Assembly: GCA_050010515.1 (NCBI GenBank)
Contig: JBEKKX010000027.1
Coordinates: forward strand, 1 to 32,131
From: Candidatus Bathyarchaeia archaeon
GTDB lineage: Archaea > Thermoproteota > Bathyarchaeia > Bathyarchaeales > Bathycorpusculaceae
Direction: 5' to 3'
Length of the DNA: 32,131 bases
In this document: positions 7,245-26,748 of the stretch, in pieces
Layout: every line of letters begins with the position of its first letter
Numbering within the stretch: the stretch's first letter is position 1
The notes under the pieces: generated by a model
Told to the model about the DNA's origin: nothing
What the model saw: the letters and a program-made list of their open reading frames with translations, nothing else
Databases searched by the model: none
Position numbers and translations under genes: made by a program

Positions 7245-7381
7245 TAAGGAATTCACTATTTGAGGGCTAAAGAATTTTGTGAGCGCTAAAGTCAGCAGTT
7301 TTTGTTTAATGATTGTTTTTAGTGTTTTTTGTTTCGATATGTTTTTTACGATAAGTCGCTAGTGCAGTATTGGGAACCATT

Positions 7382-8629
7382 TTGGTAAAACTCAAAGGAT
7401 TCCAAAAATTAACATTAACTGACCAAGCACTACAAAGCTGGCTCAGTGCACTGCAAATTGGAGCGCCCAAAGCTGCTTCTGTGTCTTTGCAGGATGCGTT
7501 AGGCCGTGTTTTAGCCCAAGACGTAGTCGCCCAACAGGATTTGCCGCGGTTTGACAAGTCAGCCGTTGATGGGTACGCATTAAAATCCGCTGATTCCGTT
7601 GGTGCTTCACAGTTTAAACCACCAGTTTTCCAATTAACCGAAAACCAAGAAGTAAACGATAAGCAGGCTAAGCAGGTTTGGACTGGAAACCCCATTCCGA
7701 AAGGCGCAGACGCAGTAGTTATGCTTGAAAACACCAAAAAACGCGAGGGAAAACTGGAGGTTTGGAGTCAACTTGCGCCGGGCGACAACGTTTCAAAGAA
7801 AGGCGAGGACACCAAAAAAGGCGACGTCGTGGCTAAGGCTGGGACTCGCTTGAACCCCTACCACATAGGATTAGCCGCTGCATTAGGCTACAGCCAGCTA
7901 AAAGTTTCCGAGAAACCGAAAATTGGCGTTTTAGCTACTGGAAATGAGCTTGCGGAAGTTGGCACGCAGCTTTCCGGCAACCTAATTTATGATTCAAATA
8001 AAATTATGCTTTCAGCCATGTGCAGAGAACTTGGTGCAGAAACAACTGATTATGGCATAGCCAAAGATAATGTGGATGAAATTGCTGCTAAAATCCAAAA
8101 AGCCCTCAAGGCTCAGGATGCAGTAATCACCACTGGCGGGACAAGCGTTGGAGGATTAGACTTGGTGCCAGACGCAGTTAACAAGCTTGGAGAACCAGGC
8201 GTTATTGTTCATGGTGTTGCACTTAGACCAGCGATGCCGACAGCTGTTGCCATGTTGGAGGGCAAGCCCGTTTTGATTTTGTCAGGTAACCCTGTGGCGG
8301 CAATTATTGGTTTTGAAGTGTTCGGTAGGCCGATGGTTTGCAGGCTTCTTGGAATGAGCAAAACGGAGCCAAGGCCAATGTTGAAGGCTACTTTAACCAG
8401 AAGGGTTGCTGGTGCGCTTGGAAGAAAAACCTACGTTCGGGTCCGAGTGATTCTGAGGGGCGGCGAGTTTTATGCTGAGCCAGTTAGCGCGAAAGGTTCA
8501 GGATCTATATCCACCATGACGCAGAGCAACGGTTTCGTGGTTATTCCTGAGAATCGGGAGGGCGTAAGCGAAGGCGAAACGGTTATAGTTCACATGTTTG
8601 GCAGTTTGGAGGCTGATGCGGATGTTTAG
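7382..8629 (+). CDS. moeA: Molybdopterin molybdotransferase MoeA (copy 1)
   Basis: LGRVLA.D, P.FD.SAVDGYA, TG.PIP.GADAVVM.E, TGNEL, TTGGTSVG, SGNPVA. Likely start is TTG 7382. Confidence 0.95.
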   Translation: MVKLKGFQKLTLTDQALQSWLSALQIGAPKAASVSLQDALGRVLAQDVVAQQDLPRFDKSAVDGYALKSADSVGASQFKPPVFQLTENQEVNDKQAKQVWTGNPIPKGADAVVMLENTKKREGKLEVWSQLAPGDNVSKKGEDTKKGDVVAKAGTRLNPYHIGLAAALGYSQLKVSEKPKIGVLATGNELAEVGTQLSGNLIYDSNKIMLSAMCRELGAETTDYGIAKDNVDEIAAKIQKALKAQDAVITTGGTSVGGLDLVPDAVNKLGEPGVIVHGVALRPAMPTAVAMLEGKPVLILSGNPVAAIIGFEVFGRPMVCRLLGMSKTEPRPMLKATLTRRVAGALGRKTYVRVRVILRGGEFYAEPVSAKGSGSISTMTQSNGFVVIPENREGVSEGETVIVHMFGSLEADADV

Positions 8630-9872
8630 GAAGCTTATGACCTTTGATGAGGCGCAAAAAGCGATTGAAGACCAGTTTAAACCTGCTGTTTTAGGTGAAG
8701 AAGAAGCCGTGCTGCTTGAAGCTTACAATCGTGTTCTAAGTGAAGACGTAGTTTCAACGCTTGATATTCCACCTTTTAACCGTTCAACCGTTGACGGGTA
8801 CGCTGTTAGAGCCGAGGACACTTTTGGAGCAGAAGAAAATCAACCTGTAACCTTGAAAGTTTGTGGTATCGTGAACGTTGGTGAGCAGCCGAAAGTGGTT
8901 TTGGCGAAGGGTGAAGCTGTTGAGATTGTTACTGGCGCTCCGATTCCTGAAGGCGCAGACGCAGCAGTTATGGTTGAAGACACGGAAAGAGAAGATGTCG
9001 AGTTGCATGTTTTCAGCGCTGTCACCGTGAATGAGAATGTTATGAAGAGGGGCTCAGACATAAAGAGTGGCGAAGTGGTGCTTAGAAAAGGCCAAGTTCT
9101 GGGGTCTTCAGAGATTGGTGTTTTAGCTGCTTTGGGTTTGACTACAGCTAAAGTTTCCAAAATACCCATAGTTGCGGTTTTGTCTACAGGTGGTGAAGTG
9201 ACTGAGCCTGGTAAGGTTTTGCCTGCGGGAAAAATCTATGACATTAACGCTTACAGCCTAAGCACAGCAGTAATTGAAAGCGGTGCAAAACCAGTTTACT
9301 TCGGCGTTGTTCCAGATGACAAAGCTGCCTTGTCTAAGGCTTTGCAGACTGCTTTAGCTTCAGCGGATATGGTGATTACTTCTGGCGGCGTCTCTGTTGG
9401 TCCAAGGGATTATACTCCGCAAATCGTGGATTCGCTTGGTAAGCCTGGAATAGTTGTTTACGGTATTGCAGTTAAGCCGGGGAAACCTACGACTGTTGGG
9501 TTTGTGGGGGAAAAGCCTGTTTTTTCGTTACCTGGTCATCCCACGTCTGCTTTGCTGATTTTTTATTTGCTTGCTAGGCCTTTGATTCAGCGGTTGGCCG
9601 GTAGACCTGTGACTGGGATGAAAATGGTTAGGGCTGTTGCTGGCGCACGAATGTTTAGTGCTAAAGGTAGACGAACCTTTGTCATGGTTAAATTAGAATT
9701 TGATAAAGATTGCCGGTTGATTGCTGAACCTGTGGAAACTGGCGCTTCTGGCGCAATCACTACTTTGGCTAAAGCTGACGGATTTGTTGAGATCCCTGAG
9801 AATGAGCAGTTCTTGGATATGGATGAAGAGGTCGCTGTTGTGCTATTCCGAAATGTTTCAGGTAAGGTTTAG
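8622..9872 (+). CDS. moeA: Molybdopterin molybdotransferase MoeA (copy 2)
   Basis: PPFNRSTVDGYAV, TGAPIPEGADA, SGGVSVG, KPGKPT, LPGHP. Overlaps the end of copy 1, with GGAGG SD at 8608-8612. Confidence 0.95.
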   Translation: MFRKLMTFDEAQKAIEDQFKPAVLGEEEAVLLEAYNRVLSEDVVSTLDIPPFNRSTVDGYAVRAEDTFGAEENQPVTLKVCGIVNVGEQPKVVLAKGEAVEIVTGAPIPEGADAAVMVEDTEREDVELHVFSAVTVNENVMKRGSDIKSGEVVLRKGQVLGSSEIGVLAALGLTTAKVSKIPIVAVLSTGGEVTEPGKVLPAGKIYDINAYSLSTAVIESGAKPVYFGVVPDDKAALSKALQTALASADMVITSGGVSVGPRDYTPQIVDSLGKPGIVVYGIAVKPGKPTTVGFVGEKPVFSLPGHPTSALLIFYLLARPLIQRLAGRPVTGMKMVRAVAGARMFSAKGRRTFVMVKLEFDKDCRLIAEPVETGASGAITTLAKADGFVEIPENEQFLDMDEEVAVVLFRNVSGKV

Positions 9873-18881: not shown

Positions 18882-19754
18882 TTATAATAATTGAATAAGT
18901 ACACCAATTAGCGTAAAAATTCCAACTATCAAAGCTATTATTCCAACCACTTGCTTCTCAGTTAATGGCCGATGATAAGTTATCACTGTAATTAGACTTC
19001 TTCTATGGTCAGACGAAAGCTTTTCTCCATCAAACGAAACTTTAGCTTTTTTACGTGTAAAGAAAACCATCAACAGTATTATTGCAGAATTGAAAATGTA
19101 AGGCAGAATTGAAACTAGCAAGCTCAATTTTAAGTCAGAAATCACGGCGAATGACGCTATCGTTATTCCTATGGCGAAGGAGCCTGAATTTCCCACGAAA
19201 ACTTTACCTTGAAAGTTGAAGTAGGCTAAAATTAGCCAGAATATCAAGGGACCAACCATTAGACTGTATAATGGTGATACAGCCATTAACCCTAAGATAA
19301 CTATGGCTGGGCATATTGTTTCTAGTCCATTCAACCCACCCAGCTGGTTTACAGTATTTGTAACAATCATAACGATTAGTGGAATAATTACATAGAAGTA
19401 TATTGAACCGAACTGTATTGTTCCAATGAATGGTAACGCTATAGATGTTCTTGCGCCTGTTTCTTTTGCGTAGTATATGAGAGGTAATGCTGCAATTAAG
19501 GGCATGAATGCTTTGTAACGCCATTTCAAATCTATCCAGTCATCAAGCAAGCCCATGAAACCTCCGAAAAGAATGCATGCCGCTAGGATTAATGGTGCTG
19601 AAATGGGTGCGGAAACGTTTGCTGGGCTCTTTATGAGATCTGAGAAATAGAGAAGAAAAAGGTAAACAGTAGTGAATAGGACGTAAAGTACGCCTAAACC
19701 GTTGGAAATTAAAGGTTGCCCAACTTTATGCTGATCTGGAACCTTTGGAAACAC
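18882..19754 (-). CDS. aglH: Polyprenyl-phosphate HexNAc-1-P transferase (MraY/GPT/AglH family)
   Basis: D.HK...P, GLLDD, NTVNQLGGLNGLE, VFVGNSG and multiple TM helices. Lies 29 nt downstream of aglB on the same strand. Confidence 0.85.
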   Translation of the reverse strand: MFPKVPDQHKVGQPLISNGLGVLYVLFTTVYLFLLYFSDLIKSPANVSAPISAPLILAACILFGGFMGLLDDWIDLKWRYKAFMPLIAALPLIYYAKETGARTSIALPFIGTIQFGSIYFYVIIPLIVMIVTNTVNQLGGLNGLETICPAIVILGLMAVSPLYSLMVGPLIFWLILAYFNFQGKVFVGNSGSFAIGITIASFAVISDLKLSLLVSILPYIFNSAIILLMVFFTRKKAKVSFDGEKLSSDHRRSLITVITYHRPLTEKQVVGIIALIVGIFTLIGVLIQLL

Positions 19755-19783: not shown

Positions 19784-22105
19784 TTAGCCTGTGCCTGTTG
19801 TGCCCGTCGCGCTATAGTATGCTGGGTAGTCAATTTTGTATATGGCTACTAACGGTACTAATCCGCCGTACTGGAATGGTGACGTATTTAGGCCAGCGAA
19901 GTAAGCTTCTGTGAAGTACGTTGGCGTTGTAGTTGTTGTGCTTGGCGTAATGCTAATTTGTCCTGTGGCAGTCCATTCGTTGCAATATGTTACCTCTGCA
20001 TAGTTCATCAATTCGTATATTGTACAGTTATCTCCTTGGTTGTTCCAGTTCCACTGTCCAGTTTGATTATTAGCGCTGCCGAAGTTTCTTTCATCCTTCC
20101 ATACTGTTGATGTTGCTGCATTCATGTAACCATGTTGTATATACCATTGCTCTATTGTTCCTGAAATGCTTGCCATCCACGGCCATTTTCCTTCATCTCC
20201 ATATCCGGAAGGAATTGCAGTGTATCCTGTGCCGCTGCTTGACGTTTGTAATTGGAGGACGGTGAAGACGAGGATGTAGTTGACCCGTCCAGGATTATTA
20301 TAGTTCTCATATTTAGACAGCATTTGCATTGACTGGTTTTCATTGCCCATCATTATGAAGCCTACGTTTTCGATTTGTGTGGTATTGTACGTAGTGTTAT
20401 CGCACAAAGTTGTTACGTTTCCAAGATTGGTTAACCAGTCGCCGTAGTCCCACCAAGCAACTACCACATTATTCGAGGGAACGTTGCTTTTCAGCCAACT
20501 TAACGCGTCAAGCCATGTACTCACTGGTTCAGTAAGGCTTGCGCCCCCTATTGGAAGGCTTGATGCACTAATTGCTGTTGGCACGAAAGATGAGTCGATG
20601 GCTCTTGGCACTCCGCCAGTTTGTGGTGAGAAAGCCACTTCCGTCATCAGAATAAGGAATATCAGAAAGACTGCGACACCGCTGTATTCCTTACTTACAC
20701 GTGCCATTCTACGTTTTGTTTTTGCCAGAGCATGTGGCGCTTCCTTCAGTAAAGTGTAAAACGGTTGTATTAGGCCCAGAACACCTATTCCTGCTATGAT
20801 GCAGAAGGCTGGAGCAAAAATTGCCAGTAAGCGAATCATTGAAGCAGCAAAGAAAAGCGAAGTTACAGCGAAAACTATTAGGAAAATGTTTCTGGTTGTT
20901 GGATTTTTTAATACAAAGTAAAAGCCAATGAGGAAGAATAGGATGCCTACGCCAAGCTCGACGTAAATGTTTCCCCAAGCTGTAATTTGCTGTTCAGCCA
21001 CTGAATTAATAATAGGTGAACTTGCCCGGATAAAGGGGTCTAAGACTGTACTGAATTTTCCTTGAAGGCCACTGCCAGTAATGAATCCAGTTGCATATAG
21101 TGTAGAAAAACCGCCGACAATTATAACCAGTGAGGCAATTGCGAGAAGCACCTTGCTCCTCAAAGTTATATTGTTTCTTAAAAGTTCTGCAATGAGAAGT
21201 AAAACGAATCCTACAGCGACTGGAATTACTGCACCTGACGTCAAGTAGGTAAGTCCCAGATAGGGAACTATTGCTGCTATGTATAATGCTAAGCCAAAAG
21301 TTATGCTGTAGCTAAGCAGAAGCCGTTGATTATACCTCTTCAATAGAACTACAACAAAAACGAATAGTACGGTCATGTCAATCATGTAGTATGCTCCGCC
21401 CCAACCTGCTATGAAATAAGCTAAGGCAGCAGCAGCGCTTAACGAGTACAATATGGATGCACGTAATGACCTATTGTTATCAATAGATCTTAGGAATAAG
21501 AATACAAATAATATAAGACCAATCGTACCCGGGACTTGTGTATCAAAGAATCCAAGAGATGTTCTTTCGATGATTGAAGGTTCTAACGCCAGGAATAACG
21601 CAGATATTAAACCGACCGTTCTTCCACCAATGTCCTTGCCTAAGAAATAAATTACCAGAACTGAAAGCACACCAACAATGGGCGGTACCATTGCGCAAAG
21701 TGTCATTAAATTAACGTTTGCTCCTAACGCTGTGATGACATCGTAGATTGCTGCTCCTGTTATAGGTATAGATGGCAAAGCGGTAGACATGTCAAGTCCG
21801 AAAGGATACCACAGCTGATGGTTGACCCAATGCGTCGGCCAAAAAGGTGAAAGCAAACCGTGAGTTACCATGTATTGTGTTACGCTGAATTGATAGTAGG
21901 GGTCAAACTCGTTAAGAAGTGATGTTCCTCCGGAGAGATTTTCCCAGCGTAAAGGTAAAATGCGGACAATAAAGGCGACGAAGAGTATTAGAGCTAACGC
22001 AGAATATGCGATTATTTGTCCGTGACTTAGTTCGATGCGTAATGGTGCCAGCCTTTTACTAAGCCGATCTTTAATTCCTTCCCCCACTTCAAGCCATCTC
22101 TCCAA
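19784..22105 (-). CDS. aglB: Oligosaccharyltransferase catalytic subunit AglB/STT3
   Basis: EFDPYY, GFFD, SVAE, WWDYG, DNTT, DEGKWPWM (DK motif) and many TM segments. Confidence 0.96.
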   Translation of the reverse strand: MERWLEVGEGIKDRLSKRLAPLRIELSHGQIIAYSALALILFVAFIVRILPLRWENLSGGTSLLNEFDPYYQFSVTQYMVTHGLLSPFWPTHWVNHQLWYPFGLDMSTALPSIPITGAAIYDVITALGANVNLMTLCAMVPPIVGVLSVLVIYFLGKDIGGRTVGLISALFLALEPSIIERTSLGFFDTQVPGTIGLILFVFLFLRSIDNNRSLRASILYSLSAAAALAYFIAGWGGAYYMIDMTVLFVFVVVLLKRYNQRLLLSYSITFGLALYIAAIVPYLGLTYLTSGAVIPVAVGFVLLLIAELLRNNITLRSKVLLAIASLVIIVGGFSTLYATGFITGSGLQGKFSTVLDPFIRASSPIINSVAEQQITAWGNIYVELGVGILFFLIGFYFVLKNPTTRNIFLIVFAVTSLFFAASMIRLLAIFAPAFCIIAGIGVLGLIQPFYTLLKEAPHALAKTKRRMARVSKEYSGVAVFLIFLILMTEVAFSPQTGGVPRAIDSSFVPTAISASSLPIGGASLTEPVSTWLDALSWLKSNVPSNNVVVAWWDYGDWLTNLGNVTTLCDNTTYNTTQIENVGFIMMGNENQSMQMLSKYENYNNPGRVNYILVFTVLQLQTSSSGTGYTAIPSGYGDEGKWPWMASISGTIEQWYIQHGYMNAATSTVWKDERNFGSANNQTGQWNWNNQGDNCTIYELMNYAEVTYCNEWTATGQISITPSTTTTTPTYFTEAYFAGLNTSPFQYGGLVPLVAIYKIDYPAYYSATGTTGTG

Positions 22106-22468
22106 ACATTAATTTCGATTTCTTGTTTAATTCTTAATTTATACACATTGGACGTTTATTTATGGCTTTCCAAAATGAACTAACATAGCTTGGTGGCTAA
22201 TGTAGTTTGATTATATTGCAATATAATCCCATAGCCAAACTATATAGCCTTTTTTTTAACCAACCTCTAAATTTCCAGCTTAAACAGGCAAAAAGTCGCC
22301 AGAAACCCTTAAAGGGCAATCAACAATAACCGTATTTTTCTTCGCTTTGAACCCTGTTTTGTACAGACGTTGCACAACTTACAGGAACTTACCATTCTGG
22401 TTTTGGTCGCTTTTTCTCAATGCTCTTCAGGTAGGTTTTATCGAAGCTTTTGGTGAGTGTTTCCTAGT

Positions 22469-22642
22469 CTATCGACGCTTGTATATGGGTTTAACTTCAA
22501 CATCTATAGGTAACAATGAAAGTTTCCTATCGCACTTTGGGCATTTTCCATTATTTTGCGAAATAATTTCGTCTGGCGGTTTAAGCTCACTGCCTTCATA
22601 TAAAACATGATTGCATCCATGGCAAATTACTCGTTGCGGCAT
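22469..22642 (-). CDS. Small zinc-ribbon protein (57 aa, absent from ORF track)
   Basis: MPQRVICHGCNHVLYEGSELKPPDEIISQNNGKCPKCDRKLSLLPIDVEVKPIYKRR has two CxxC pairs. Divergent from topA. Confidence 0.85.
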   Translation of the reverse strand: MPQRVICHGCNHVLYEGSELKPPDEIISQNNGKCPKCDRKLSLLPIDVEVKPIYKRR

Positions 22643-22799: not shown

Positions 22800-24875
22800 T
22801 TGGAAAAATACAAGTTAATTGTTACTGAAAAACCTGATGCCGCAAACAGAATAGCTATGGCTTTGGACACCGATGGAAAAGCCAAAAAAATAGTTGATAG
22901 CGGCGTTCCATATTATCAAGCATACAGAAACGGCAATTTAGTTGTTGTTCCAGCAATTGGGCATCTATACACTGTTGCAAGCAAGGAAAAAACTAAACGG
23001 GATTATCCAGTTTTCGATTATCACTGGGTTCCAAGATACCTTGCTGAACGGGGCGCATCAAAGATCCGTGTTTGGCTAAATGTAATTGCTAAACTAGCAG
23101 AAAACGCTGAAGAGTTTGTAGATGCTTGCGACTTTGACATTGAAGGCAGCATCATAGGCTACTGTATACTCAAGTACGCTTGCGGTAGCAAGGAAAAAAC
23201 TGCCAAACGCATGAAATACTCCACACTCACAAAAGAGGAACTGCAAGAATCTTACGCTCACTTATTGCCGCATTTGGATTTTGCTCTTGTTGAAGCTGGA
23301 TTGACAAGGCATGAAATAGATTGGCTCTACGGCATAAACCTGTCTAGAGCCTTAACAATGGCTGTGAAAAGCAGCAGTGGACAATATGCTACACTCAGCA
23401 CTGGTAGAGTGCAAGGGCCAACCCTCAAATTTTTAGAAGATCGAGAAAAAACCATAAAGTGCTTCGTGCCCGTTCCCTACTGGAGCATAACCGCTAAAAT
23501 AATCATAAACGACACAGCATACGAAGCTGAATACGAAAAAATCCTCGAAAGCAAGCAAGAAGCAACGGCAGTAATGGATGCCTGTAAAACCAAAGAAGGT
23601 CAAATAGAAACAATAGCTGTAAAAGAGTTTGAGCAGAACCCACCGTTACCCTTTGACTTGGGCGCTTTGCAAAGTGAAGCTTACAGAAATTTCCGTTTTA
23701 TGCCGATGCGTACTTCAAACATAGCTCAGCACCTGTACTTAGATGCATTAATCTCTTATCCGAGAACAAGTAGTCAAAAGCTTCCGCCAGCAATCGGCTA
23801 CGAAGCCGTATTAAGAAAACTAGCTAAACTGCCTGCTTACGGAAAACAGGCAGCTGACCTGCTCTCTAAACCAGTTTTGAAGCCAAATGAAGGAGAAAAA
23901 GCCGACCCAGCGCATCCAGCCATTTACCCGACTGGGAACCTGCCTGAAAAACCCCTTGGCACAGTTGAAAGAAATATTTTCGATCTTATCATACGCAGGT
24001 TTATGGCTGTTTTCGGTGAGCCTGCCATTCGCCAAAGCACGAAAGCAACAATTAGCATCAGCGGGAATCTTTTTCACTTGAACGGAACGCGAACGTTAAG
24101 TGAAGGATGGCTTCGATTTTACAAACCTTATGTTCAACTGAAAGATGTGACTTTGCCCTCCTTAACTCAGGGACAAAAAATCGCTGTTAAACGAGTAGTT
24201 GTGAAAAATAATTTTACTAAACCGCCGGCAAGGTATAACCCTCGCAGTTTACTTTTGAAAATGGAAAAAGAGGATATAGGAACCAAAGCGACGAGGGCAG
24301 CAACCATACAAACGTTGTACGACCGCAAATACCTCTACGGAACCGATAGTCTTGCCGTTTCTGACCTTGGCTTTGAAGTCATCGACATCCTGGTAAAGTA
24401 TTGTCCAACCGTTGTCTCACCTGAACTAACTAGAAAGCTTGAGGAGAAGATGAATGAAATCCAGCAAGGAAAAGAAACAAAAGAAGCTGTATTGCAAAAC
24501 GCCGTTGAAATCTTAAAGCCAGTCCTATTAGAGCTCAAAGAAAAAGAATCAGTTATAGGCGAACAATTAAGTCAAGCGTTGAAAAAAGCTCGGCTTGAAG
24601 AAAGAATAGTTGGTGCATGCCCGAAATGTGCTGATGGAAAACTAGTTATTTTGCGCTCCAAAAAAACTGGTAAACGTTTTGTTGGCTGTACAAACTATTT
24701 CGAAGGTAAATGCAACGTGACTTTTCCGCTACCTCAAACTGGCAATGTAAAACCGTTAAATACCACTTGCAAAAGCTGTGGGTGCCCCATATTGCGTGTG
24801 TACCTGAGAGGGAAGAGGTCTTGGAAATTATGCCTAAATCCTAACTGCCCCTCAAAAGGAGCGAGCAACCAGTGA
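22800..24875 (+). CDS. topA: Type IA DNA topoisomerase (archaeal TopA/Topo III) with C-terminal zinc fingers
   Basis: TOPRIM motifs EKP, GHL, DFDIEG. Also GRVQGPTL, catalytic ISYPRT, HPAIYPT, GTKATR and C4 zinc fingers. Confidence 0.97.
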   Translation: MEKYKLIVTEKPDAANRIAMALDTDGKAKKIVDSGVPYYQAYRNGNLVVVPAIGHLYTVASKEKTKRDYPVFDYHWVPRYLAERGASKIRVWLNVIAKLAENAEEFVDACDFDIEGSIIGYCILKYACGSKEKTAKRMKYSTLTKEELQESYAHLLPHLDFALVEAGLTRHEIDWLYGINLSRALTMAVKSSSGQYATLSTGRVQGPTLKFLEDREKTIKCFVPVPYWSITAKIIINDTAYEAEYEKILESKQEATAVMDACKTKEGQIETIAVKEFEQNPPLPFDLGALQSEAYRNFRFMPMRTSNIAQHLYLDALISYPRTSSQKLPPAIGYEAVLRKLAKLPAYGKQAADLLSKPVLKPNEGEKADPAHPAIYPTGNLPEKPLGTVERNIFDLIIRRFMAVFGEPAIRQSTKATISISGNLFHLNGTRTLSEGWLRFYKPYVQLKDVTLPSLTQGQKIAVKRVVVKNNFTKPPARYNPRSLLLKMEKEDIGTKATRAATIQTLYDRKYLYGTDSLAVSDLGFEVIDILVKYCPTVVSPELTRKLEEKMNEIQQGKETKEAVLQNAVEILKPVLLELKEKESVIGEQLSQALKKARLEERIVGACPKCADGKLVILRSKKTGKRFVGCTNYFEGKCNVTFPLPQTGNVKPLNTTCKSCGCPILRVYLRGKRSWKLCLNPNCPSKGASNQ

Positions 24876-25102
24876 AATGCAAAATTTGCAGTAGAGAAGC
24901 ATAAGAAAATGTTTTCTGCATATTGCATTTTAGGGCTTACCAAAATGTTATTGAGAAATTTGATATATGGATGATGAAAGCTTCTGGTATGTTTTTTTTG
25001 GGTTGATTATTTAGTTGAGATTCAGAAAAATTCATTAACTGGAGAATGGGCTAAAGATGTAGTAAACACCTGATCAAGGAGGACAATGGAAATGGCAAGT
25101 AA
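24872..25102 (+). pseudogene. Disrupted small CxxC...CxxH protein translationally coupled to topA
   Basis: GTGA overlap with the topA stop. Reads MKCKICSREA*ENVFCILHFRAYQNVIEKFDIW..., then after a frameshift in T8 (24992-24999) WVDYLVEIQKNSLTGEWAKDVV, then after a second shift HLIKED. Confidence 0.65.
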
Positions 25103-25517
25103 AATAAAGAAGCGATCTTCGTCTGTATCCTTTTCGCTGAGTCGATGGTTCAGCAAAATTTCAACAGCTACTCCTTCAGCACTCTTAATTACTGTTGCAG
25201 GAATTTTATACTGTGTATTTCTCTTCGGCGGTGGCTTGTATACTCTTATTACCCGTCCTGCTCCCTCAGCCTACGTTAATGGAAATTTCTATTTCCTCTA
25301 TCCAAATCTCAGTTCGCAATTCATATCTGACACTGTGATCTCGGTAATATTGTATGGTTTTGGTTTTCTCGGTCTGTTTGTTATTTATCAAAGTACCAAG
25401 AGCGCTTATAACCCAAGGCAAGCTTACATGATGCTAATCATAGGCGTAGCATTTTTGCTTCTTTCATACATATTCTTGGAAGGCGCGATTGCTTTCAAAT
25501 CATCCGGCGGAGCTTAA
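25086..25517 (+). CDS. OSTC/DC2-like (OST3/OST6 family) three-TM membrane protein
   Basis: PSA...GG..Y..I..P...FL.....QFI.D.....L...G.LG...S...IG...LLS...K is collinear with eukaryotic OSTC/DC2 as I recall it. AGGAGG SD at 25077-25082. Confidence 0.75.
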   Translation: MEMASKIKKRSSSVSFSLSRWFSKISTATPSALLITVAGILYCVFLFGGGLYTLITRPAPSAYVNGNFYFLYPNLSSQFISDTVISVILYGFGFLGLFVIYQSTKSAYNPRQAYMMLIIGVAFLLLSYIFLEGAIAFKSSGGA

Positions 25518-25546
25518 CTCTGTCTTTTTTCCATAGGTTTTTCTTT

Positions 25547-26056
25547 TTACCACGGGTTTCTTTTTAGTTTCATTTTGTATGCTAAGAAATTTGTTAATAA
25601 ATGAATAGGCGGAGTAATCAGCAAAACTGTAACTGCCAATTCCCAATTTACAATGGCTAAAGGAACCGAAAACACGATTGCACCAATGGCAAAGTCAACT
25701 TGATCAACTATAGGAAGTAAACCCCCTGGAGCAATCCCTATCCTTCTCTTTAAAAAAGCGCCTGCCAAATCGCCTAAAAGTGCCCCCAAAGGAATCAACA
25801 TGCTAAACAAGATTGGAAAACCAAAAAGTACGCACTCAATTAATCCAACTAATACGCCGATTGCTAAGCCGAAAAAGAAGCCCCTGAAAGTTTTGTTATT
25901 TCCAAAGATTCGTTTTCCATCATAAAAGTTCTTTCCGAAATCCATCTGCGTTCCCCCGCCAGCAAGCACTGGCGTGGCGTTTGCGCAGTAGGCTGGAAAA
26001 ATAAATTTTAATGCTTCAACGATCAGCTGAGTTATTTCCATGTGGTCAACCATCAT
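25547..26056 (-). CDS. carS: CDP-archaeol synthase
   Basis: PAY.AN..P, DFG...DG.RIFG..KT.RG, GDL...F.KRR.G, DQ.DF. ATGA overlap with the upstream RadB-like gene. Confidence 0.93.
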   Translation of the reverse strand: MMVDHMEITQLIVEALKFIFPAYCANATPVLAGGGTQMDFGKNFYDGKRIFGNNKTFRGFFFGLAIGVLVGLIECVLFGFPILFSMLIPLGALLGDLAGAFLKRRIGIAPGGLLPIVDQVDFAIGAIVFSVPLAIVNWELAVTVLLITPPIHLLTNFLAYKMKLKRNPW

Positions 26057-26748
26057 TTTTGGAATTCAGTATCTTTTATTCCGGTTTCGCCTATTTGTAC
26101 ATAACAAGTGACTTCTTGCTTGTTTTCCCGTGTTTCAAGAACAGCTTTGATTGTTTGAGGATAGCCGGTAGGTTTCATAGCGATTATTGTGTCAGCCCAG
26201 AATTTTAAAACTCTGTTTGCAACGGGCGCGACGCTGACGTTTGGGTCATCAAAAACGCTTCTTACTTGGCTTACTATTATAACTGGGATTTTTCGGATTT
26301 TTGCTGTTTGCGCTAAAATTGCTAATTGCCTGTTCAATTCACGGTTTACGCTGAAGGCTTTGCCAGAGGACTCAGCAACTTCTGCTCCATACAAAGATGT
26401 GAAGGTGTCAATTACTATTAACCCAAAATTTTTTGCTGTATAATCTTGAATGCGGTCTATAACCGCCGTTTGTTCATTGAAATCCTTAGGTTTAATTAAA
26501 ATGACTTGCTCAGCAACCTGGTCGAATTTATCGCCTGAAAGTTGTGAAAGCCTTTTGGTCGAGAAAGTGTTATCGCAGTCAACAAAGAGTGTCTTGTAGT
26601 TTTGTAATGCACAACTAACGGTGCATTGTATCGCAAACGTTGTTTTTCCAGTTTCGGGTTCACCATAAATTAAAGTAACGCTTTCGGGTGAAATGCCCCC
26701 GCCAATGTTGCTATCGATGCATCTGCAGCCTGTGTGGATTGTGACCAT
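26053..26748 (-). CDS. radB: RadB-like RecA-family ATPase
   Basis: Core-only RecA fold: TG...D...GGG, Walker A GEPETGKT, Walker B LIVID, SQVR. Confidence 0.8.
   Translation of the reverse strand: MVTIHTGCRCIDSNIGGGISPESVTLIYGEPETGKTTFAIQCTVSCALQNYKTLFVDCDNTFSTKRLSQLSGDKFDQVAEQVILIKPKDFNEQTAVIDRIQDYTAKNFGLIVIDTFTSLYGAEVAESSGKAFSVNRELNRQLAILAQTAKIRKIPVIIVSQVRSVFDDPNVSVAPVANRVLKFWADTIIAMKPTGYPQTIKAVLETRENKQEVTCYVQIGETGIKDTEFQK

Follow-up and report, generated by a model that had tools for sequence, protein, structure and literature searches.

A DC2-like member of the OST3/OST6 family in Bathyarchaeia, its linkage to aglB and its co-occurrence with a ribophorin I homologue

Archaeal AglB is treated as a single-subunit oligosaccharyltransferase (OST), and the accessory subunits of this enzyme are usually seen as innovations on the way from Asgard archaea to eukaryotes. 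Does an archaeon outside the Asgard group also carry such a subunit? The question is raised by an open reading frame (ORF) at 25086..25517 (+) of the Candidatus Bathyarchaeia contig JBEKKX010000027.1 (assembly GCA_050010515.1), of which a stretch of 32,131 nucleotides, called the window below, was analyzed. From the sequence alone, the original prediction had described its product as a counterpart of the human OST subunit DC2 (OSTC) and had suggested that it works with AglB. We found that this DC2-like protein is homologous to OSTC/Ost3 in both sequence and fold. Its gene is repeatedly linked to aglB in the phylum and co-occurs with a gene for an Ost1-like (ribophorin I-like) protein.

Sequence and fold of the DC2-like protein

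The ORF is a real, conserved gene. Its translation is exactly the 143-aa sequence quoted in the original prediction, and the three transmembrane (TM) segments claimed for it were located by a hydropathy scan at residues 33-51, 83-101 and 113-131. In most homologues, the first residue falls at the second methionine. The ATG at 25092 is therefore probably the true start codon, which would give a protein of 141 aa. A Shine-Dalgarno-like GGAGG motif, read from the sequence, is found 9 nt before this ATG (25078..25082, +). Among 1,946 candidates, 1,896 were homologues at E ≤ 1e-3. In an all-against-all search of representatives, 220 clusters (made at 50% identity, with nearly all members 100-190 aa long) were retained at E ≤ 1e-3; the stricter thresholds of 1e-10 and 1e-30 left 70 and 16. 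The 37 Bathyarchaeia homologues that make up profile A1 have 52 invariant columns and share a strongly conserved basic N-terminal helix (KIKK..SSS.SFSLSRWF). In one metatranscriptome run (share 0.05), contigs from a 90-95% identical relative gave zero cover of 25086-25517; they covered aglB at 20272-22089, plus short pieces elsewhere. This result speaks neither for nor against expression of the gene.

Searched with the single protein, the Pfam family PF04756 (OST3_OST6) gave 27.2 bits, just at its cutoff of 27 (E = 3.2e-6). Only the TM module was aligned, with residues 21-140 corresponding to positions 169-290 of the 294 in the profile. An NCBIfam scan of the protein gave no match. When profile A1 was compared with the PDB, the best solved relative was human OSTC/DC2 (E = 2.4e-5). 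Profile A2, which was built from 82 diverse archaeal family members, matched human OSTC (6s7o_H) at E = 3.8e-17, and its positions 27-140 were aligned to residues 26-144 of the 149 in OSTC. MAGT1 followed at E = 3.3e-7 and yeast Ost3 at E = 0.28; the other matches listed (E ≥ 2.2) were unrelated proteins. PF04756 was matched at E ≤ 0.01 by 65 of the 82 members of A2. A tree of these 82 sequences was poorly resolved (39 of 79 forks were open).

The predicted collinearity with OSTC was thus borne out, and it extends to motifs. In A2, G49 is invariant and Q78, G96, G120 and K138 are conserved in at least 90% of the sequences. These columns correspond to the GG of TM1 in human OSTC, to the Q..E after the loop, to the glycines of TM2 and TM3 and to the terminal lysine. 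The near-invariant K138 aligns with a lysine in the C-terminal tail of human OSTC. A passage of Shrimal 2017 states that DC2 without its C-terminal lumenal tail cannot assemble into the STT3A complex. With regard to this requirement, the position of K138 in the aligned tail is only suggestive.

The structure predicted by AlphaFold2 from A2 had a mean predicted local distance difference test score (pLDDT) of 92.9 and a predicted TM-score (pTM) of 0.76. It comprised an N-terminal amphipathic helix (12-27), a short beta-hairpin (62-69) and three packed TM helices (32-56, 80-105 and 110-139), TM1 and TM2 being joined by a short external loop; this arrangement is the fold of the TM module of OST3/OST6/OSTC. 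Foldseek returned 381 PDB matches at E ≤ 10, four of them at E ≤ 1e-3. These best four were all human OSTC entries from OST-A or the translocon (9n9j_J, 8b6l_J, 6s7o_H and 8pn9_H), with TM-scores of 0.64-0.83 on the target, root mean square deviations of 1.9-2.8 Å and about 22-24% identity. Ranks 5-11 were taken by yeast Ost3, human MAGT1 and a chain of an Ost6 complex. The Foldseek probability was 0.87-1.00 for the top 11, all of them chains of the Ost3/DC2 class, and fell to 0.2 or less from rank 12. The identities of chains 9n9j_J, 8b6l_J and 7oci_C were deduced from entry content and chain length. The homology to OSTC/DC2 and the OST3/6 family that the original prediction had claimed is thus supported both by sequence profiles and by fold.

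Distribution of the gene and its genomic partners

The named close homologues belong to Candidatus Bathyarchaeota/Bathyarchaeia. Homologues and loci together place the genome in Bathyarchaeia, in agreement with the claim of a non-Asgard archaeal host. We then took 301 genomes of the GTDB phylum of the window as the survey sample, with a match threshold of E ≤ 1e-3. The DC2-like gene was present in 176 of them, including all 45 genomes of the same class. Beyond Bathyarchaeia, carriers were found in Methanosuratincola (family f18), in Ca. Terraquivivens (Wolframiiraptoraceae, Nitrososphaerota; f25) and in a Thermofilaceae-type genome (f32), whose AglB is 81% identical to that of an Infirmifilum metagenome-assembled genome. 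Some families lack the gene almost completely (f13, 1/44; f14, 0/14; f21, 0/20; f22, 0/6; f29, 0/11).

The family also extends to Asgard archaea. P0315, a Heimdallarchaeota protein of 155 aa, shares 61% identity with the family representative P0238, and among the nearest clusters is one from the Atlas, made up of Promethearchaeota proteins of 163 aa. Thus, the Asgard "OST3/6" protein is this same short form. No thioredoxin domain was detected in any of the nine longer prokaryotic family members that were scanned. A search for longer or fused forms among 7,999 candidates (E ≤ 1e-3) found none, which is weak evidence. One of the nine, a metagenomic protein of 341 aa (P0235), has instead a DC2-type TM module fused to a cytoplasmic N-terminal part with a Zn-ribbon and HEAT repeats. 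Its composition hints that the cytoplasmic N-terminus may be an interaction platform.

The genome (98.5% complete) also has, outside the window, an Ost1/ribophorin-I-like ORF of 613 aa (contig C3:15409-17250; L003:769-2610, +). Its recognizable parts are a signal peptide, an ectodomain rich in beta structure, a single TM helix and, in the cytosol, a helical tail of about 170 aa. It scored 24.9 bits against the Pfam family Ribophorin_I, the cutoff of which is 25. Profile A5, built from 21 archaeal relatives of this protein, matched human RPN1 from end to end (E = 2e-36; query 10-565 against residues 8-607 of a chain of 607). It also matched yeast Ost1 (E = 4.2e-14) and the MK-D1 OST1 cytosolic domain in its crystal structure (8WHN; E = 3.7e-18). 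By its domain layout and its full-length match to RPN1, the protein belongs to ribophorin I/Ost1. Homology links its cytosolic domain to the part of human RPN1 that binds ribosomes and to MK-D1 OST1; for the MK-D1 domain, ribosome binding is shown in a part of Carilo 2024. Around the gene, the neighbors (histone deacetylase, ThiF, DUF354 and GcvP) include no consistent partner.

With A5, the Ost1-like gene was detected in 158 of the 301 genomes, compared with 61 by the eukaryote-built Pfam model. Both genes were present in 143 genomes and neither in 110. The Ost1-like gene alone was found in 15 genomes, ten of which had weak matches near 1e-7 to 1e-9. The search for further OST subunits, which the original prediction had proposed as a check, thus yielded ribophorin I as a full-length homologue; OST48, DAD1 and ribophorin II (PF03345, PF02109 and PF05817) had no match in the genome, where eukaryote-built models may miss divergent forms. 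Ost4 and Ost5 (PF10215 and PF05251) gave only matches below cutoff, and the same searches responded in 7 and 9 of 14 control genomes. For TRAP alpha, beta and gamma, only noise below cutoff was observed in the genome. We also considered and rejected a split Ost3. The weak match to the N-terminal part of PF04756 on contig C34 is an ordinary thioredoxin of 108 aa (WCGPC) and is unlinked to the DC2-like gene.

Linkage to aglB was surveyed at two levels. For Bathyarchaeia, we used the best 80 loci of 234 relatives in named genomes, of which 75 were labeled Bathyarchaeota/Bathyarchaeia, one MCG, three "uncultured archaeon" and one "Limnocylindrales bacterium". CarS (adjacent) and RadB were each found in 79 of the 80 loci, Topo in 73, AglB (within 10 kb) and XPD in 69 each, AglH in 67 and PolB in 64. 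The topoisomerase lies at the same position, between aglB and the DC2-like gene, in those 73 loci. Because the entire 20-kb block is collinear, PolB and XPD included, the proximity of aglB within Bathyarchaeia says little. The contig labeled "Candidatus Limnocylindrales bacterium" (DATHCJ010000012.1) bears the full Bathyarchaeia block (RsmB, PolB, AglH, AglB, Topo, DC2-like, CarS, RadB and XPD) and was probably mis-binned or mislabeled.

The second set, drawn from about 35 families of the phylum, comprised 46 loci. Of these, 21 had aglB within 10 kb of the DC2-like gene, against a chance expectation of roughly 1% per genome (20-kb window, 1-2.4 Mb genome). In eight loci, aglB is the immediate upstream divergent neighbor, with a gap of 76-468 bp. 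Three of these loci are Terraquivivens-type (Wolframiiraptoraceae); the others belong to families f23, f24 (two loci), f30 and f49. The f17 loci have a topoisomerase between the two genes, as in Bathyarchaeia. In a Thermofilaceae-type genome (G205), aglB lies about 1.7 kb downstream of the DC2-like gene on the same strand. Directly upstream of the DC2-like gene in the same genome is an ORF for a multi-TM protein of 298 aa that resembles UbiA-type prenyltransferases (L085:575-1471, +; family unchecked). The genes carS and radB always lie downstream of the DC2-like gene and are convergent with it, and this order (25517-26748 in the window) is kept across many families of the phylum. The expected synteny with aglB therefore recurs in unrelated lineages, whereas the most constant neighbors are carS and radB.

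In the window, the neighbors named in the original prediction (aglB-aglH at 3 kb, and carS adjoining) were confirmed by Pfam. AglB/STT3 (773 aa) is encoded at 19784..22105 (−; PF02516, E = 2.5e-34) and is the single STT3 of the genome. The 5′ end of its gene is 2,980 bp upstream of the DC2-like ORF. It has WWDYG at residue 551 and DNTTYNTT at 569-576. In an alignment of 52 AglBs from carrier genomes, D569, N570 and T572 occur in every sequence and N574 and T576 in at least 90%. Judged from these residues, the window AglB carries the double sequon of the eukaryote/TACK type, which is assigned to eukaryotic, Asgard and TACK STT3 in a part of an eLife paper of 2022. Directly downstream of aglB is the gene for a GT4 AglH/Alg7-like glycosyltransferase (18882..19754, −; PF00953, E = 6.5e-22). 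What separates aglB from the DC2-like gene is a gene for a type IA DNA topoisomerase (22800..24875, +; PF01131, E = 1.3e-116), which is context, outside the system. The gene for CDP-archaeol synthase CarS (25547..26056, −; PF01864, E = 1.1e-44) is convergent and lies 29 bp from the DC2-like stop codon. Upstream of carS is, again as context, the gene for a RadB/KaiC-like RecA-family ATPase (26053..26748, −; PF08423, E = 1.2e-20). Two further observations were made in the window. A 57-aa ORF with two CxxC pairs, resembling a zinc ribbon (22469-22642, −), is found in the 700 bp that separate aglB from the topoisomerase gene, and a metatranscriptome contig from a relative spans 22412-22638, over this region. 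At 7370-9872 (+), tandem MoeA paralogues of 419 and 424 aa have slightly overlapping frames.

A possible accessory subunit of AglB

In eukaryotic structures, DC2 and TM2-4 of Ost3 sit on the TM domain of STT3. By analogy, we think it fairly likely that the DC2-like protein is an accessory subunit of AglB. Within the Ost3/Ost6/DC2 subunit class it represents the prokaryotic version, a three-TM module without the thioredoxin domain, with the N-terminus in the cytoplasm and the C-terminus outside, as in the DC2/OSTC architecture. Its binding to AglB and the docking site are inferred from the same comparison: the glycine-rich TM helices would pack on the TM domain of the single AglB/STT3, where the protein would serve as a non-catalytic subunit. 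AglB/STT3, the Ost1-like protein encoded on contig C3 and the DC2-like protein might then form a minimal three-subunit OST at the cytoplasmic membrane. The conserved basic N-terminal helix faces the cytoplasm and could, speculatively, contact SecYEG, the ribosome or lipid. A link to SecYEG or the ribosome, and with it a co-translational part, is suggested only, by the role of human DC2, which bridges to Sec61 and has KCP2 as its partner, and by the homology of the Ost1-like protein to RPN1 and MK-D1 OST1 in the cytosolic part that binds ribosomes.

Several points weigh against an AglB subunit. Characterized archaeal AglBs work as single subunits, and AglB in general needs neither accessory gene, because several families are without both. 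In the window, aglB and the DC2-like gene are 3 kb apart with the topoisomerase gene between them, and are thus separate transcription units. Of the 46 phylum-wide loci, 25 lack aglB in the surrounding 10 kb, all three Methanosuratincola-type loci among them, and the genes adjacent to the DC2-like gene are more constantly radB (34 loci) and carS (23) than aglB (8). Considering this constancy and the collinear 20-kb block, the synteny may reflect ancestral gene order and not function. Both the synteny counts and the two-by-two table of co-occurrence overstate the support, because related genomes are not independent. In addition, 33 of the 301 genomes carry the DC2-like gene and show no detectable Ost1-like gene. 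Nor is the fold match wholly independent of the yeast OST structures, because these were among the PDB entries on which AlphaFold2 was trained.

Part of this evidence would suit a different reading, in which the protein is a true OST3/6-family homologue that acts independently of AglB, perhaps as a small membrane adaptor for another machine, for example membrane-lipid synthesis around CarS or SecYEG/YidC insertion. The constancy of carS and radB, the 33 genomes without an Ost1-like gene and the UbiA-type ORF of the Thermofilaceae-type locus (its family being unchecked) all point in this direction. So does Methanosuratincola, where the order is DC2-like > carS < radB < XPD and aglB is absent within 10 kb. 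However, carS and radB are convergent with the DC2-like gene and so are not co-transcribed with it, and radB has no membrane role, which indicates inherited gene order. All solved relatives of the protein are OST subunits bound to STT3, divergent adjacency to aglB is seen in at least five families, and the phyletic pattern follows the Ost1-like gene. We therefore regard a role apart from AglB as unlikely, though worth keeping in mind. Much less probable still is transport of Mg2+ or another cation, after the old label of MagT1/TUSC3. This label survives in the description of PF04756 ("OST3 / OST6 family, transporter family") and in the JGI name of two homologues. The three TM helices have no polar pore-lining pattern and their conserved residues are mainly glycines, as is typical of helix packing; moreover, MAGT1 itself was solved as a subunit of OST-B (6s7t_H), and the best match, OSTC, has no transport role.

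A chance ORF, or a likeness produced by hydrophobic composition alone, might be suspected from the borderline Pfam score of the single sequence and from matches of the narrow profile A1 to other TM proteins, such as claudin at E of about 0.3. This explanation was refuted and keeps hardly any probability. The number of homologues and the invariant columns in Bathyarchaeia are against it, and so is the gain from A1 to A2, by which the OSTC match was strengthened from E = 2.4e-5 to 3.8e-17 while claudin-3 disappeared and only claudin-9 was left at E = 7.8. The fold search was likewise specific to the Ost3/DC2 class.

A DC2-type subunit and a full-length ribophorin I homologue are common in Thermoproteota (Bathyarchaeia, Methanosuratincolia, Wolframiiraptoraceae and Thermofilaceae-type genomes). 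The two accessory genes were gained or lost jointly, and aglB is often the divergent partner of the DC2-like gene. These findings place the likely origin of the multi-subunit OST core deeper than Asgard. We tentatively propose a fuller scenario, which is possible but still doubtful. Already in the ancestor shared by TACK and Asgard archaea, STT3/AglB, Ost1 with its ribosome-binding domain and a DC2-type subunit would have made up an OST working beside the Sec translocon, so that translocon-coupled multi-subunit N-glycosylation would predate Asgard. The DC2 architecture would then be ancestral, the thioredoxin-bearing Ost3/6 would be a later eukaryotic elaboration, and several lineages of the phylum would have lost the module as a whole. 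Thermofilaceae and Methanosuratincola have cultured members. These carrier lineages are places in which a native AglB complex can be sought.

Relation to known oligosaccharyltransferases

In the consulted part of Lombard 2016, prokaryotic homologues of the non-catalytic subunits were not found. Later sources, each consulted in part, describe further OST subunits in Asgard archaea (Eme 2023), a model of the MK-D1 OST (Carilo 2024) and an OST3/6-like tree based on PF04756 matches in 966 archaeal genomes (the Panguiarchaeum paper of 2025). According to one sentence of Carilo 2024, OST1 and OST3/6 are present in eukaryotes as well as in TACK and Asgard archaea; restriction of the family to these groups rests on this source. 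The warning in the original prediction that the family may not be new was thus well placed. Since presence in TACK was already in print in this one line, the gain of our analysis lies in detail and testability, not in kind. Our analysis adds the specific likeness of the archaeal form to DC2, its joint occurrence with a full-length ribophorin I homologue across Thermoproteota and the repeated divergent pairing of its gene with aglB. A literature search that combined OSTC/DC2 with archaea or Asgard gave no paper in which the archaeal protein is called DC2-like. Our results suggest that the archaeal "OST3/6" signature protein is better named DC2-like.

The closest solved relative is human OSTC (DC2), which in OST-A is the subunit specific to STT3A (6S7O chain H; further entries are 8B6L, 8PN9 and 9N9J) and which has 149 aa, compared with 143 here. 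Both proteins have three TM helices and no thioredoxin domain. They differ in that the archaeon has one AglB and no split into STT3A and STT3B, and in the conserved basic N-terminal helix of the Bathyarchaeia proteins. The assignment to the DC2-like class is based on architecture and best match, not on a tree with eukaryotic sequences; as for orthology to DC2 or to Ost3/6, the higher score of OSTC may reflect only common architecture or slower evolution.

Yeast Ost3/Ost6 and human TUSC3/MAGT1 share with the DC2-like protein a homologous C-terminal TM module (Foldseek ranks 5-8, 10 and 11). These proteins have, in addition, an N-terminal lumenal thioredoxin domain with a CxxC motif and an extra TM helix, neither of which is present in the DC2-like protein. 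With its 143 aa and three TM segments, and with no thioredoxin match in Pfam, it was therefore not filed as Ost3/6 proper.

Among archaea, OST3/OST6 is said to have been described in 2017 by Zaremba-Niedzwiedzka and colleagues as an Asgard eukaryotic signature protein, and Asgard Ost1 and Ost3 were reportedly found. The Bathyarchaeia genome studied here differs in the remaining subunits: TRAP, Ost4/5, OST48, DAD1 and ribophorin II were not detected in it, whereas a part of Eme 2023 reports several of them in Asgard. The Asgard OST3/OST6 signature protein belongs to the same family and has the same short architecture as the DC2-like protein, and in MK-D1, according to a passage of Carilo 2024, it is found together with OST1 and STT3.

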